Positions 55,095 through 64,000 of a DNA stretch of 64,000 nucleotides are shown piece by piece (position 1 is the first letter of the stretch; each line of letters begins with the position of its first letter). A model generated the notes under the pieces. The model was not told the origin of the DNA, did no database searches, and saw nothing but the letters and a program-made list of their open reading frames with translations. The stretch is from Opitutia bacterium (GTDB lineage: Bacteria; Verrucomicrobiota; Verrucomicrobiia; Opitutales; T3Sed10-336). The stretch lies in contig JBJHCF010000023.1 of NCBI GenBank assembly GCA_050506795.1, forward strand, positions 17,898 to 81,897. Direction: 5' to 3'. Position numbers and translations under genes: made by a program.

Positions 55095-55473
55095 GAATGG
55101 CACTCGATTAAGCAGGTTCATCGTTTGAGAAACCGAAACGAAATTGGAATTGCGCCTCCGCTTCCTGATAGGGCGCCGCTCCCGCGCCGCCGGCGCGGGC
55201 AGAATTGCCCGTGCTCCCAAACCGGCGGCCATGCGGGAGCATGGCCCTCCAGGGGAACAGCCGATGCGATTAAAGCAGTGCTTAACGGTGAAGGTTCTCA
55301 CACGGAGCCACGCCCTCAGCGAGCTCAGGCCGGTGAGAGCTCACGGAGGTCGGTCCTGTAAAAATCTCCGTGACTTTGTGCCTCCGTGTGAGCCCAATTT
55401 CCGCTGTATTAAAGGATTCGTTACACCATAACAAAGCAGATTTAGGCCTAACCGAATCGCATCGGCTATTTCC
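55095..55473. mobile_element. Chimaeric IS4-like MITE: type A body (reverse orientation, no nested insert) plus type B REP core
   Basis: 55095-55272 is closely similar to the reverse complement of ~6389-6900 minus 6483-6819; ~55286-55410 matches the core of 2209..2459 and 56377..56637. Confidence 0.8.
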
Positions 55474-56263
55474 CTCGAAGGTCCTGACCCCGCATTGCCA
55501 GGGCCTGCCGGACCATGAGCGGGTTGTCGGATATAATTCCATCCACTCCCAAATCCAATAACTTCAAGGCCGTATCCAGTTCGTTGATCGTGTAGATCCA
55601 CACCTTAAACCCGCGCGCATGGGCTTCGCCGACCGATTCCCGAGTAACCTGCCCGTTCCAGCCGACCACGGTGGCGCCCGCTTTTTCAATGCGGTCGAGA
55701 AAGGGGGCGTTGAGAAAACGCTCACTGTACCAATAACGCTTCCCGTCCGGTCGACGCGGCGGACCCAGGGCGCCGAGTGAAACGTTTGCGGCCAGGTCGC
55801 GACAATCCGCCAGGAACTTCCAATCGAATGCCTGGATCACGACCCGGTCCAGGCTCCCGCATCGGTCAAGCAGATCGATCAAGGTCCTGGCGTCCCCGTC
55901 CTTGCGCTCAATCAGCACACCAGCTTTTTTCCGTATCTCATTGAGCGCCTGTTGCAGGGTCGGAATGCGAACACCGGCGAATTGCGGCGAAAACCAGCTT
56001 CCCGCATCCAGCCGGCAAAGCTCGTCCACCGTTCTGGAATGAACCGTCACTCGCTTCGACCCCCACCGCCTGGCGGCGTCTGTGGTTCGATCGAGGGTGC
56101 GGTCGTGAATGACGACGGGCACGCCGTCACTGCTATGACGATAATCCAACTCCACCAGGTCGGACTCCGCCAGACACGCCGCCTGGAAGGCCGGAATGGT
56201 GTTTTCCGGCGCCGTGAGGCTGTAGCCCCGATGGGCGATGACGAGTGGACGTTCTTCGTTCAT
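55466..56263 (-). CDS. Glycerophosphodiester phosphodiesterase family protein
   Basis: VIAHRG..APENTIPAF, VELD, IHDRTLDRTT, WIYTINE, GVDGIISDNP. Confidence 0.92.
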   Translation of the reverse strand: MNEERPLVIAHRGYSLTAPENTIPAFQAACLAESDLVELDYRHSSDGVPVVIHDRTLDRTTDAARRWGSKRVTVHSRTVDELCRLDAGSWFSPQFAGVRIPTLQQALNEIRKKAGVLIERKDGDARTLIDLLDRCGSLDRVVIQAFDWKFLADCRDLAANVSLGALGPPRRPDGKRYWYSERFLNAPFLDRIEKAGATVVGWNGQVTRESVGEAHARGFKVWIYTINELDTALKLLDLGVDGIISDNPLMVRQALAMRGQDLRGK

Positions 56264-56376: not shown

Positions 56377-56637
56377 GAATGGCACTCAGTTAAGGTCGTT
56401 GATTGAAGGAGCGTTGTCCAACTGTGGTAAGTTTACCAAAAATCACGCCCGGTTTTATGCGGTGCTGAACTGTGGAGGTTCTCACACGGAGCCACGCCCT
56501 CGACGAGCTCAGGCCGGTGAGAGCTCACGGAGGTGGGTCCTAAAAAAATCTCCGTGACTTTGTGCCTCCGTGTGAGCCCAATTTCCGCTGTATTTTTGCT
56601 TCACCAAATGATGAACCGCCTTAACCGAGTGGCATTC
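56377..56637. mobile_element. IS4-like MITE, type B
   Basis: GAATGGCACTCAGTTAAGG ... CCTTAACCGAGTGGCATTC; flanks CTCTAACCC / CCCTAACCC (9 bp, one mismatch). Confidence 0.85.
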
Positions 56638-59558: not shown

Positions 59559-59741
59559 GGCAGGTAGTTTTCGGGTTTGGATCGCGACCGAAAGAATACC
59601 CCTTTGAATGAACACTCCTCAAGCAAAAAATACATTGCGTTTTCTCCGGAATCTTCAAAAGATGACGTAATCCTGAAATCAGCCACTCGCGATCCCTTGA
59701 ACCGCTGATTTACCGATGAATCGATCAGTTTGTACTGCCTG

Positions 59742-61151
59742 ATGCACGCGTTATTTCGCCCCGTCGATATCGCCCCGCTGGTATTCTTTCGGATCGTGTT
59801 CGGTTTGGTCATGTTCTGGGAGGTGGGACGCTATTTCGGGCGGGGTTGGATCGCTTCAAAGTTTATCGAACCCGAGTTTTTCTTTACGTATTACGGATTC
59901 GACTGGGTAAGCCCGCTGCCGGGCTCCGGAATGTACCTGGTCTTCGCCCTCCTGGGGATCTTTTCGGTTCTGATTGTCCTGGGGCTATTTTACAAGGCGG
60001 CGATAACGGGCTTCTTCGTTTGCTTCACCTACGTCTTCCTGATCGACCAAACGAACTATCTCAACCACTTCTACCTCGTCATTCTGCTGAGTTTCCTGAT
60101 GATCTTTCTCCCTGCCAACCGGGCGTTTTCCGACGATCTGTATCTCTGGCCGAGGATGCGGACGGAAACCGTTCCGGCCTGGACGTTGTGGCTGTTGCGA
60201 GGCCAGCTCGCTATCGTGTATTTCTTTGCGGCAGTGGCAAAGGTCAACGGCGACTGGCTGATCCGCGGCGAACCGATTCGCACCTGGATGCAGCGCCGGA
60301 ACGAGTTGCCGGTCTTCGGACAGTACCTGGCCGATGAACCGATCGTCTATGCAATCGCTTGGGGCGGATTTCTCTTCGATCTTTTGATCGTGCCGCTGTT
60401 GTTATGGCGAAAAACGCGTATCCTCGGTTTTTCGGCGGCTCTTGCGTTTCATCTGACCAACTATTACCTCTTCAATATCGGCATTTTCCCCTGGCTGATG
60501 ATTGCCGCGACGACATTATTCTTCAATCCGTCCTGGCACCGGCAGCTGTTGGAGCGACTGCTGGGCGCCTTCGTAACGTCGGAAAAGTCAACGCTTCGCT
60601 CCCGTAAAAAATCCGGAAAACAAGCCCGCGAAGACCGTCGGACGGATTTGCAAGATCAGGCCGCCTTCTGCTCATCTCGGCAGCGGTATGTTGTCACTGG
60701 GTTGCTCGCCGCTTACATGTCCATCCAGGTTATACTCCCTCTGCGCCACCACCTTTATCCAAATCCCGTGGCCTGGAGTGAGGACGGACACATGTTTTCG
60801 TGGCGCATGCTGTTGCGGACAAAGTCCGCCCATGGAGAGTTTTTTGTTCGCGCGTACGATCCACGTGAGGATGCCTGGGATGAATTCTTTGTGAGAGGTT
60901 TAAATCTGACCGAAAGGCAGGAACGCAAGATGTGGACACGCCCCGACATGATCCTCCAGTACGCCCATCACTTGGCAGAAGAGAAGGAAGCGCAAGGATA
61001 TCGCCAGGTGGACCTCCGGGCTTTCGTCAACGTCTCCCTCAACGCCCGCCCCCGCCAGCCTTCTGTCGATCCCGATATCAACCTCGCGGATTATTCGCGC
61101 ACACTGCGCCCTACCTCATGGCTCCTTCCGTTGGGAGAACCGGCGCCATAA
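59742..61151 (+). CDS. HTTM-domain / vitamin K-dependent gamma-carboxylase-like membrane protein
   Basis: LVFFRIVFG, YLNHFYL, YFFAAVAKVNGDWL, IGIFP, WSEDGHMFSWRMLL, PDMILQYAHHL, VSLNARP. Confidence 0.9.
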   Translation: MHALFRPVDIAPLVFFRIVFGLVMFWEVGRYFGRGWIASKFIEPEFFFTYYGFDWVSPLPGSGMYLVFALLGIFSVLIVLGLFYKAAITGFFVCFTYVFLIDQTNYLNHFYLVILLSFLMIFLPANRAFSDDLYLWPRMRTETVPAWTLWLLRGQLAIVYFFAAVAKVNGDWLIRGEPIRTWMQRRNELPVFGQYLADEPIVYAIAWGGFLFDLLIVPLLLWRKTRILGFSAALAFHLTNYYLFNIGIFPWLMIAATTLFFNPSWHRQLLERLLGAFVTSEKSTLRSRKKSGKQAREDRRTDLQDQAAFCSSRQRYVVTGLLAAYMSIQVILPLRHHLYPNPVAWSEDGHMFSWRMLLRTKSAHGEFFVRAYDPREDAWDEFFVRGLNLTERQERKMWTRPDMILQYAHHLAEEKEAQGYRQVDLRAFVNVSLNARPRQPSVDPDINLADYSRTLRPTSWLLPLGEPAP

Positions 61152-61295
61152 CCCCCCCAGCGTCTCGCAGCCGCCTTCGAGTGTTCGCGCAACTACCTCC
61201 CCCGTCTCCCATTTCAAATAGATCCAGAGCCTAGGCCGAATTCATCGGCATCGGTGATTCCATCGATTGATAACATGGTAGATAATTTGCCGGCT

Positions 61296-61396
61296 GGAGC
61301 GCACCAGAACATTATGTCAAGTCCCGCCCCTTCCGAACGCTCCGCGAGTGGCAGGAAGGAAAAGGCGGGATTGGACATAATGTCGTTGTGCGTCGG
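61296..61396. other. Pair of inverted dif-like (Xer-type) recombination sites; probable element boundary
   Basis: GGAGCGCACCA-GAACA-TTATGTCAAGT (61296-61322) and, inverted, ATTGGACATAA-TGTCG-TTGTGCGTCGG (61370-61396); compare E. coli dif GGTGCGCATAA-TGTATA-TTATGTTAAAT. Confidence 0.6.
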
Positions 61397-61604
61397 AAGC
61401 AGGCTCTTAAAAACCAAGGGCGGGGCCGGGGGAGGGGGTGACGGGAGGGGCGGCCGATTGGAACCGAAGAGAGCGACGGCGTCCCGCGCTTGCGGGATGC
61501 TTTGAGGGAGCCTAGGCGACCGGTAGCAGATGCCGTGACGGAGCGCCGATGTAAAGACAAGGTTTGGAGAAAGTTTCCACTTACAGCAAAGAATCGACGA
61601 TGGT

Positions 61605-62447
61605 TCATTCAACGTATGCGACTTCGGTCTCAACGCCCTTAATCTTCTCAGACACAAGCAATTCTCTGACTTTGGGCGAAATAAGGATTATTCGTTCCGG
61701 GCGTAACAGTCCTCTTCGCATGCCGACGAACTGACGTGTGCAAATGATTTCGGTATCGCCGCAAGATCCAGACTTAATTGTCACCTCCGAAAGGAGGTTA
61801 AGTCCAATCAAATCACCACACTGACAACGGAATTTACCTTCCTCATCTTCATCAAAGGGATCAAGGCCAACGCGTGTTGGAGCGACGACTTCCGCATTGG
61901 CATTGGATACAAGCAATTGAAACCAGTTTTGGGATTCCGCACTTGATGAAGGGTTTGCGCGAACAGGACGCAACTCAGCACCATTGATGCCATGTCGAAC
62001 AAATAGCTCACGCAACCGCCGAGATACCACAATCTCACCGGCAATGGTCCGGCTGACATCTTTGCTTTTTGGTATTTGCTTTTCGGGTAAGTAAAGCGGC
62101 GTGACCTGTCTTGCTCCCGCTCCGCAATGGGAACACGCCACTGATTCATCGTATTTAGTTCCCAACTCCTCGCCAGCAGGCTCAAATACAGAAGTAACTT
62201 TAAAATGGAAAAGTTTCGCAGCGGCAATTTCCGCCTTTGTGAAACGCCGCCGAATCCGGCAAGCGGTGAAAAGAGTCCTTCCCTCACGCCTGAGTCGTTT
62301 GTCCATAAGTCCAATCTCGGCAAACCTTGCTGAGGTAGTATCAAGTTCAACTTTTCGGACACTTCCACCAAGCGACACGCCTTCATCTAAAGCGAGGAAG
62401 CGCTTCGCGTGTTCTTCTGGTATCCTTAACTCTGCAACTTCCTTCAT
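61605..62447 (-). CDS. Putative immunity protein with two Cys knuckles (CSHCG, CQCG)
   Basis: Starts 6 bp after the toxin stop; lower GC; double CxxCG-like motifs. Confidence 0.6.
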   Translation of the reverse strand: MKEVAELRIPEEHAKRFLALDEGVSLGGSVRKVELDTTSARFAEIGLMDKRLRREGRTLFTACRIRRRFTKAEIAAAKLFHFKVTSVFEPAGEELGTKYDESVACSHCGAGARQVTPLYLPEKQIPKSKDVSRTIAGEIVVSRRLRELFVRHGINGAELRPVRANPSSSAESQNWFQLLVSNANAEVVAPTRVGLDPFDEDEEGKFRCQCGDLIGLNLLSEVTIKSGSCGDTEIICTRQFVGMRRGLLRPERIILISPKVRELLVSEKIKGVETEVAYVE

Positions 62448-62453
62448 CAGGAC

Positions 62454-62936
62454 TTATCCTCCAGGCAACGGATACTTATCGTAAACTTGTCGCATAATTT
62501 CTTGTAGACGTTCGGGAGAAGGTTTCTGAGAGCCATAGGGATGTAATCGTCGAAACTCATTTGCAATCTGCTGATGATACGCTCCGTCAAGAGGAACTAG
62601 AGGACCTTTGGCATCGCCCCCAAGATATTTGGGTGTGACGTGGTGTTGTTCGATCCTGCCTGCTTTATTTGGATACTGCCTTTGCGCGGATCTGACAAGA
62701 TCATCTGTATTCCTTGCGGCAACAGTGTATTCCGACGCGGTGTCGTAGTTCAACCAGCCGTTTATCCGGCATTGTTCGCGGGCTGACGGGCCGTTTTCCC
62801 CGGCGTTTTCAACGGCCCCGGAAAAAATTTCATCCGGCGCGGTTTTCCAGCTGACGGCCTCCGCGTCCGCGCTCGCGAAGAGCGAACCGAGGAAGGCGGC
62901 GAGGGTCAGCAGGAAAAATTTGAAGGAACACAACAT
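62454..62936 (-). CDS. Small secreted polymorphic toxin with an HNH-like nuclease C-terminus
   Basis: Signal peptide (..ADAEA), shared leader to VAAR, then EQHHVTPKYLGG..LDGAYHQQI. Confidence 0.65.
   Translation of the reverse strand: MLCSFKFFLLTLAAFLGSLFASADAEAVSWKTAPDEIFSGAVENAGENGPSAREQCRINGWLNYDTASEYTVAARNTDDLVRSAQRQYPNKAGRIEQHHVTPKYLGGDAKGPLVPLDGAYHQQIANEFRRLHPYGSQKPSPERLQEIMRQVYDKYPLPGG
62711..62777. repeat. 67-nt exact direct repeat (copy 1) at the leader/toxin junction
   Basis: Identical to 63440..63506; part of a ~210-bp imperfect repeat. Confidence 0.95.
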
Positions 62937-62940
62937 ACCA

Positions 62941-63177
62941 CTAGAACGCCCTCCAGCTTTCAGGTGTAATTCCCCAATTTTCCGAGGCTGATGATTCAGC
63001 TAAAGATTTACTTTCATACCAATCATCGTAAACAGCTTCAGCATCAAGCGATTCATGCAAATAAATGAAGAATCCGCCCGTATCATCAGGATCGTATTCA
63101 AGCACTGCCCAAGCAATTCCTTCTTGTCGAAAACACTCTGGGATTTCGGCATAAAACTTTAAGGTAGCATTGCTCAT
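62941..63177 (-). CDS. Putative immunity protein (78 aa, acidic/aromatic)
   Basis: ATGA overlap with the toxin stop; low GC; GFFIYL..YDDWYES..AE...ENWGI..W. Confidence 0.65.
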   Translation of the reverse strand: MSNATLKFYAEIPECFRQEGIAWAVLEYDPDDTGGFFIYLHESLDAEAVYDDWYESKSLAESSASENWGITPESWRAF

Positions 63178-63665
63178 GGGTCGATAAGTGGAACGTGCAA
63201 ATTCCTCAGAGGTTTTCCAGTGCTCGGATTAATTCGCTCGAAATGGACATGAGGTTGACCACCCATACCGCGACCAGTTAGGTCTGATGTTGTCATTCGA
63301 AACTGTCGAGTTCCATCCGCAGATCGAAACACTCCAGGGGCAATTTCTCGATACCCCGGCCCAAGATGGCGCTCTGCTGAAGTCAACGCTTGGTCAACCG
63401 TCCTAGCACGTCCAGTTGCATTAACGGCCTGAGGTGGTGTCCTTGCGGCAACAGTGTATTCCGACGCGGTGTCGTAGTTCAACCAGCCGTTTATCCGGCA
63501 TTGTTCACGGGTTGCGAGGCCGTTTTCCCCGACGTCTTCGAGGGTCCCGGAAAAAAATTCATCCGGCGCGGTTTTCCAGCCGAAGGCCTCGGCTTCCGGG
63601 CTCGCGAAGAGCGAGCCGAGGAAGGCGGCGAGGATCAACAGTAACAGCCGGAGCGGTCCTTTCAT
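63174..63665 (-). CDS. Small secreted polymorphic toxin with a putative RNase-type C-terminus
   Basis: Signal peptide (..PEAEA), shared leader to VAAR, then LGPGYREIAPGVFRSADGTRQFRM..DL....PHVHFE, resembling CdiA/Rhs toxin tips. Confidence 0.65.
   Translation of the reverse strand: MKGPLRLLLLILAAFLGSLFASPEAEAFGWKTAPDEFFSGTLEDVGENGLATREQCRINGWLNYDTASEYTVAARTPPQAVNATGRARTVDQALTSAERHLGPGYREIAPGVFRSADGTRQFRMTTSDLTGRGMGGQPHVHFERINPSTGKPLRNLHVPLIDP
63440..63506. repeat. 67-nt exact direct repeat (copy 2)
   Basis: Identical to 62711..62777; encodes EQCRINGWLNYDTASEYTVAAR on the minus strand. Confidence 0.95.
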
Positions 63666-63767
63666 CGCCGGGACGTTGGCAGATAAACAGGGCCGGGGCA
63701 ATCTCGCATTGCCCGGATTGAGTGCGGCTTACGGGAAGAGCGGCTAAAGAAAGAAGAGGCGACGCGC

Positions 63768-64000
63768 TCAGGCGTTTTCTTCGTCCTCGGCGTCGTCGAG
63801 CTCGGCTTTCAGTTCCTCGAGGGTGGTGTTTTCGAGGCGGGCGGGATGGGTGGCGGCGTGGATTTCCTTGAGCTTGCGGATGGAGACTTGGGTGTAGATC
63901 TGCGTGGTGCTCAATTCGGCGTGGCCGAGCAGTTGCTGGATGAATCGGATGTCGGCCCCGTTTTCGTGCATGAGCGTGGCGCAGGTGTGCCGAAGGAGGT
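63768..64000 (-). CDS. XerC-like tyrosine recombinase, C-terminal part (5' end outside the window)
   Basis: [44 protein letters not shown] and catalytic Y motifs. Confidence 0.92.

Follow-up and report, generated by a model that had tools for sequence, protein, structure and literature searches.

The right-hand end of a 64,000-nucleotide stretch of Opitutia bacterium DNA (Verrucomicrobiota; assembly GCA_050506795.1, contig JBJHCF010000023.1, positions 17,898 to 81,897; hereafter the window) carries the 3′ end of a xerC-like gene and, downstream of it, two predicted toxin genes, each followed by a partner gene, in the order T1-I1-T2-I2 (Table 1). All lie on the minus strand and are tightly packed, with a gap of 102 nt between xerC and T1, an overlap of 4 nt between T1 and I1, and gaps of 4 nt and 6 nt before T2 and I2. 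T1 and T2 have 205 nt in common at 90.2% identity, a region that closes with 67 identical bases, and they diverge abruptly after the codons for VAAR, so that the layout of four coupled genes behind a XerC-like gene with a common leader is as the initial annotation had described it. The fall in GC that it reported at the junction was also borne out, as the GC content of third codon positions (GC3) stands at 0.73 for each leader and at 0.35 and 0.34 for the two tips, with 0.34-0.43 over tips and partners together. Two of its statements hold in part. A small gene does follow the first tip (I1, 78 amino acids (aa)), but I2 is 280 aa long; and both toxins begin with a signal-like segment, assigned from the sequence by a basic start, a hydrophobic core and AEA, but the first nine codons of T2 are not homologous to T1. 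No Pfam or NCBIfam match was found for T1, I1, T2 or I2 at E values up to 1, no Rfam family reached gathering level, and a search of RNA data found no holder of the locus.

Table 1. Features of the T1-I2 array and its surroundings, in positions of the window.
Feature	Position	Strand	Description
xerC-like 3′ end (last 76 codons)	63768..64000	minus	NCBIfam PRK01287, E 3e-26; truncated by contig end
T1, 163 aa	63174..63665	minus	Signal-peptide-like segment of 27 aa, linker of 48 aa, tip of 88 aa
Predicted Sec-type signal peptide of T1	63585..63665	minus	Predicted from sequence; hydrophobic window 2.75
Junction site 1, GTT GCC GCA AGG ACA CCA	63435..63452	minus	Candidate in-frame exchange site
I1, 78 aa, acidic	62941..63177	minus	Candidate immunity gene for the T1 tip, from position and 4-nt overlap
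T2, 160 aa	62454..62936	minus	Signal-peptide-like segment, T1-type linker, His-rich HNH-like tip of 85 aa
Junction site 2, GTT GCC GCA AGG AAT ACA	62706..62723	minus	From junction counts and window word scan
I2, 280 aa, Cys-motif protein	61605..62447	minus	Candidate immunity gene, Imm11 / double-CXXCG (SitI6-like) type
Conserved non-coding array end	61283..61545		90-93% identical stretches in locus L001
93-bp imperfect inverted repeat, dif-like arms	61300..61392		Candidate attachment site of the element; z -4.0

The junction between leader and tip was compared across 25 cassettes from eight Verrucomicrobiota genomes, with several unalignable leader families and 15 of the cassettes drawn from two genomes. 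Nineteen had been found by protein motif or profile, and five of the other six were found first by a DNA-word scan and then recovered by a hydrophobicity filter; arrays in these related genomes hold up to eight word-bearing cassettes. The junction codons are close to invariant, with GCC in 25/25, GCA in 23/25, a fourth codon ending in G in 24/25 and a preceding xTT in 21/25. The pattern continues inside the tips, where the first base (+12) is A in 23/25 (p 1e-12) and the sixth (+17) is again A in 23/25. Position +17 is a third codon position; the codons concerned encode eight different amino acids in tips that are unrelated, and the background is 0.23 (binomial p 6e-13). Among the 19 protein-found cassettes alone the counts are 18/19 at +12 and 17/19 at +17. 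As controls, Ala-Ala pairs inside tips read GCCGCA in 1 of 31 instances, in this genome GCA accounts for 8% of Ala codons and AGG for 6% of Arg codons, and silent divergence elsewhere in the family C leaders is 0.37-0.80.

The resulting word is 15-18 bp long, (xTT)GCCGCARRG-ANNNNA, and reads in frame as VAAR, LAAK or similar. In relaxed form it occurs exactly twice in the window, at the two junctions, where 0.13 occurrences are expected. It is asymmetric, all cassette sites are co-oriented, and no inverted partner is common to the cassettes (best 4-6 of 8). Since the junction is fixed at silent positions, protein selection cannot account for the word. The initial annotation had taken VAAR as the delimiter of a protein trafficking leader, a view at odds with a junction that is fixed in the DNA and common to unalignable leaders and long Rhs genes; VAAR looks, from these sequence comparisons, more like a translated DNA site than a trafficking motif. 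The retention of the word at silent positions in unrelated cassettes suggests a dedicated means of swapping toxin tips.

When the word was searched for as a 17-base pattern, 14 matches turned up in 11 of 401 genomes, where the reversed control pattern had 3; six of the 14 were known cassettes, two were new signal-peptide cassettes and six were background. The word core also stands in frame at the start of the tip in four of the eight long Rhs-type frames of these loci, being absent from the other four, and in two partial frames, and all six frames that have it carry A at the sixth tip base. Tips of identical type occur on different leader families, with matches that begin at residue 1 or 2 (84%, 76% and 56% identity). 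Contigs of other runs were compared at 88% likeness, where such joints can stem from other organisms. In one record the match to the T1 tip extends as far as 63450 and is followed by 305 unlike letters, and another matches the leader down to 63435 and is then unlike. With breakpoints at 63450-63451 and at 63435, both records therefore retain the word. In two runs I1 is linked to the start of the T2 leader, and in X1 the depth of the leader is several times that of the tips. Viral contigs gave 61 matches to the DNA word, 11 of them with a tip-sized frame and none of these a cassette, which we take as chance. In a separate locus (L023:2100-7700), the signal-like leader of downstream cassettes is fused straight to the last Rhs-core residues, a second route to carrier-free toxins.

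The leader was followed into other proteins. A search with it gave 19 proteins among 32 candidates and, when it was used as a profile, 84, the union being 92 (P0117, a FLYWCH protein, was discarded as a false match). Of these 92, 84 split at a junction and eight were not splittable. The 77 tips of at least 40 aa fall into 65 clusters, and the median protein length is 177 aa, so that, in keeping with the polymorphic toxin-immunity layout initially proposed, the homologues carry diverse tips, nuclease types among them, in place of one constant C-terminus. The leader itself belongs to no Pfam or NCBIfam family, and the description of it as unfamiliar stands. The proposal that no large carrier exists was too strong: in P0086 a window-type leader is joined to a longer Rhs/HINT protein, and many arrays stand behind Rhs genes. 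Across related arrays the leaders form several mutually unalignable families of 34 to about 110 aa, all with a hydrophobic N-terminus, and downstream cassettes retain their own start and this N-terminus, as expected from the initial annotation. No leader turned up when metagenome and viral contigs were scanned, a further scan of metagenome data yielded a single weak locus that had no cassette, and a profile of the family C leader matched 0 of 401 phylum genomes. One leader-tip protein (P0077) has part of the XerC C-terminus at its own end, which points to rearrangement within the element.

The tips were examined by sequence and by fold. Among 177 longer candidates, 27, for the most part Rhs or HINT proteins, carry the T1 tip, with identities reaching 86%; in the nearest of them the match starts at the same residue. 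For the T2 tip, one of 49 candidates, an Rhs protein of 1745 aa, has a C-terminus with 66% identity to it. Because both occur on Rhs proteins and the relatives of the leader carry many tips, the sequences identify them as genuine polymorphic-toxin tips. Scans of leader-bearing relatives for known toxin families gave scores over the cut-off for 2 of 18 proteins and for 9 of 69 (HNH, LHH, AHH, WHH, Ntox24, barnase-type ribonuclease (RNase), DUF2380, URI2 and TNT). By sequence, neither the T1 tip nor the T2 tip matched a solved structure. A fold search, as the initial annotation had proposed, was also made. The T1 tip is modelled with a predicted local distance difference test score (pLDDT) of 91, and its best fold match is the CdiA-CT in PDB entry 5T86 (Foldseek E 0.053, probability 0.96), with a middling alignment score (Z 6.4, root-mean-square deviation 3.1, 73 residues aligned). 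Since this match is accompanied by two invariant His residues, the modelled T1 tip is probably of RNase type. For the full T2 model (pLDDT 66) the fold search gave no meaningful match, and Atlas leads for the T2 tip point to HNH-clan families, every one below 0.9. I2 scored 0.89-0.90 in Atlas to Imm11 / double-CXXCG clusters, which is weak by the tool's own recognition value.

Homology shows that the T1-I2 array rides on what is predicted to be an XRE / primase-ATPase / XerC-like integrative element, as the initial annotation had supposed. At locus L002 a primase-ATPase gene is followed by xerC and then by a window-type leader, and the end of that xerC is almost identical to the one in the window (pN 0.02). 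Related elements carry an XRE gene, a single xerC and a primase some 1030 aa in length. The initial annotation had suggested looking to the right of the window for a primase and a second recombinase; a primase is found upstream of xerC in the relatives, and the related elements examined have no second recombinase. The window edge is the contig end, which cuts the xerC-like gene, and therefore nothing lies to the right in this assembly; no continuation past xerC was found among the genome's other contigs, and the element's primase was not found in the assembly. A full-length relative of the XerC reaches 437 bits with PRK01287, for which the cut-off is 371, and 119 bits with the integron model, for which it is 265. 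Element-type xerC occurs at 14 places in 10 of 401 genomes of the class, and relatives of the element are also found on proteobacterial plasmids, mid-way in large toxin loci.

Several further features of these elements were recorded. In most elements the xerC stop is followed by a TTTAGCCGCT / TTTAGCTGCT word (window 63666-63767), often as an inverted repeat that extends into the start of the leader; the T1 leader gave z -1.3 in a hairpin test. One genome (G405, loci L022-L025) holds five near-identical primase-xerC copies, two of them in tandem, each of which passes into a tip of its own at one shared base immediately ahead of a DPTG motif and is without the junction word. Loci L028, L030 and L031 have the same xerC type with non-toxin cargo, including long low-GC genes that resemble defence genes. 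Decayed remnants of the element, with the end motif and a xerC fragment, lie behind Rhs-partner pairs at L052:3300-5400 and L001:8400-9900, with inserted toxin-antitoxin genes, presumably PIN- and YafQ-like.

The array end after I2 recurs in L001 and on contigs C18, C29, C16 and C35 of the same genome, and three of the four copies on other contigs sit behind Rhs-partner pairs. Within it, the arms of the 93-bp inverted repeat resemble dif, and the repeat is probably the attachment site of the element; over five copies 4 of 15 pairs have two-sided changes, the structure having been drawn from these same sequences. A 63-bp array-end sequence is 97-98% identical over three genomes (L036:8188-8250, L020 and L072) and also occurs without a nearby recombinase, and two long inverted repeats lie between the cassette array and the XRE gene at L036:2240-2770. 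A word-like stretch at L036:2226 was considered as a hybrid attachment site and dropped, because its homologue in L051 is without it. Further from the array, a host membrane-protein gene (window 59730-61151) converges on the element end; it has no NCBIfam match and presumably resembles HTTM / gamma-carboxylase-like proteins. A short repeated non-coding unit lies either side of a glycerophosphodiesterase-like gene (window 55282-55600 and 56399-56557), and is also present on contig C18, where it was seen as repeated translations.

The explanation we favour, giving it slightly more than an even chance, is that tip-immunity modules are exchanged from site to site at the 15-18-bp in-frame DNA word and land behind a signal peptide. 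The cassettes would belong to the Rhs-type polymorphic toxin pool, and the mobile unit would consist of site, tip, immunity gene and next leader. Products joined at the word are observed, as tips on different leaders and on Rhs ends; short-site recombination there would join any tip to any leader or long Rhs end with the frame intact. Unrelated short signal peptides followed by an unstructured linker would keep the array translated end to end, and the leaders probably direct the tip to Sec export from the cytoplasm. For a cytoplasm-acting tip behind a leader of 14-48 residues, export may protect the producer cell instead of serving entry into a target cell. The likeliest enzyme, at about an even chance, would be the element's own tyrosine recombinase. 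A fuller version, in which an integron- or shufflon-like machine uses a mobile tyrosine recombinase to shuffle tip-immunity cassettes between mini-toxins and full-length Rhs proteins at the in-frame site, with exported products of 140-200 aa that are active without an uptake domain, is possible but doubtful.

A number of observations weigh against exchange at the word. The element and the word are imperfectly associated: of the 14 xerC places, two lead to word-type cassettes, nine to Rhs-core or DPxG-type cassettes without the word and three to other cargo, and three genomes (G266, G072 and G803) carry the word with no intact element XerC in the assembly, although some word-bearing assemblies of this kind have array-end sequences in common with element loci. 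The classical tyrosine-recombinase spacer must match between partners, and the four middle bases of ANNNNA vary. The element XerC is in doubt as the enzyme because most of its copies are without the word, three word assemblies are without XerC and the middle bases are variable. The word is also not universal, as 2 of the 25 cassettes deviate from it, relatives known as protein alone have VATN, VAAN and VAAE variants, and it is missing from two proteobacterial elements or carriers and from seven other Rhs-like frames of this genome. To these are added the derivation of 15 of the 25 cassettes from two genomes and the background origin of 6 of the 14 pattern matches; no recombination reaction, excised circle or expression was seen.

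An unlikely alternative, but the one that fares best, is that the host shuffles the tips by homologous or microhomology recombination, with C-terminal displacement and without a dedicated enzyme, and that the word is a homogenised patch, an idea already put forward for DNA that encodes VENN. For Rhs the usual explanation is C-terminal displacement (PMC8125069), and orphan modules that run from VENN to VENN, with recombination proposed, have been described (Poole 2011, PMC3150448). The 205 nt common to T1 and T2 would suffice for RecA, and the word can be present in genomes without the element XerC. Unrelated leaders and Rhs ends, however, have just 9-15 bp in common, and two fixed A bases around four free ones resemble protein recognition, not homogenisation.

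The initial annotation held that the leader is a protein trafficking domain, that VAAR is a protein delimiter or cleavage site, and that T1 and T2 are minimal Sec-exported weapons, and this we regard as decidedly improbable. It has in its favour that the family A leader is conserved across 75 aa, with open frames and in-frame insertions and deletions, that every leader family has a hydrophobic N-terminus, and that the tips are toxin domains. Because of these open frames and in-frame changes, and of a signal-like segment in every family, we consider translation of the leader to be under selection, and Sec export probably so. The leaders nevertheless cannot be aligned from one family to another, their length can be as little as 34 aa, and protein selection does not explain the invariance at silent sites. 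The ratio of non-synonymous to silent differences (pN/pS) is about 0.5-1.0 in the leader and 0.10 for a close xerC pair; a distant-element xerC control gave 0.50 by ungapped comparison, and therefore the close pair alone is a clean control. The mature leader is modelled with a pLDDT of 45-61 and no confident fold (31-sequence alignment), and a second DNA word, AAAACCGCG, in the xerC-proximal leaders is read in three frames across different elements. A trafficking domain is thus unlikely, given the weak selection, the lack of a confident fold and the inner word in three frames, and a signal peptide with a loose linker fits.

A very unlikely reading is that the arrays serve chiefly as stores of immunity genes or for addiction; the leader would be translated element DNA that couples the genes and clears the cytoplasm of the tip, and no mini-toxin would arrive in another cell. 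In its favour, a mature leader of 14 residues is too small for an uptake domain, protein selection on it is weak, gene coupling is tight and Salmonella orphan Rhs pairs function as toxin-antitoxin modules of type II (PMC7043789), but a signal-like segment in at least five unrelated leader families exceeds what coupling needs. Storage or addiction can hold alongside exchange of tips at the word.

Like integrons and Xer-type single-stranded DNA integrating elements such as CTX phage, in which a cassette array stands behind a tyrosine recombinase and a hairpin with dif-like arms lies at the element end, the present element combines a recombinase with an array. Its recombinase is PRK01287 XerC-like, not IntI as in integrons, and no clear attC-like hairpin was found at each cassette. 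Orphan arrays of contact-dependent inhibition (CDI) and Rhs systems are similar in their tip-immunity arrays, abrupt divergence after a short motif, motif-to-motif modules and pooled tips, but those orphans generally lack signals for translation and retain parts of the carrier gene (PMC3150448), whereas here each cassette has its own start and a signal-like leader unrelated to any carrier, and a fixed DNA pattern reaches into the tip. The own start had been put forward as a distinction from CdiA and Rhs orphans; this does not hold generally, as translation of an orphan Rhs-CT of Salmonella begins at an internal start (PMC7043789). The VENN motif, haemagglutinin carrier and cdiB of CDI are not found in the cassettes, and the T1 tip fold alone resembles CdiA-CT (Z 6.4); the YD-repeat core or DPxG that precedes the tip in Rhs is absent from T1 and T2 and present in other cassettes of the same element type. 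MafB of Neisseria (Jamet and Nassif 2015, PMC4436062) likewise has a signal peptide, a conserved N-terminal part with a short motif at its end before the tip, a variable tip, an immunity gene and orphan cassettes; here there is no DUF1020 (no Pfam match at E up to 1) or mafA, the leader is 34-110 aa, and every cassette keeps it.

The R64 shufflon (Rci, sfx; 10.1101/2024.10.25.620183) also has a tyrosine recombinase beside an asymmetric site with one conserved arm and swaps C-terminal segments, but as described its segments invert and its core is fully conserved, whereas the present cassettes are co-oriented, have variable middle bases and are known from sequence alone. The rAID of Bacteroidales (PMC12247911) resembles the array in its tyrosine recombinase, co-oriented low-GC conflict array and DNA motifs that are conserved from unit to unit; rAID is reported to hold immunity genes that are orphans, with its motifs intergenic, and here tip and partner genes alternate and the motif is coding. 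In T1 and T2 there is no lipobox Cys at the end of the hydrophobic segment as in SitA of myxobacteria, and the likeness of I2 to the SitI double-CXXCG proteins is limited to the weak Atlas score, with no Pfam or NCBIfam match. XerC/D genes beside poly-immunity loci, and Sec-exported toxins, are listed by Zhang 2012 (PMC3482391). The literature searched, in a collection with few subscription papers, contained no description of the element, leaders or word. The array is a real polymorphic-toxin array on a mobile element, which operates like CDI and Rhs orphan arrays and is a member of neither; its new features are the carrier-free signal-peptide leader on every cassette and the in-frame DNA site at the switch point.

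Tip switching is usually credited to homologous recombination, and the switch motif is taken for a feature of the protein. In the present arrays the point of switching bears a DNA signature beyond protein selection and lies next to a candidate enzyme, which reduces the question to a simple plasmid assay. An in-frame asymmetric site with its recombinase would, if true, be a useful tool for domain swapping. The word and the short leaders are markers for the exact boundaries of dozens of unannotated tips and immunity genes of Verrucomicrobiota.

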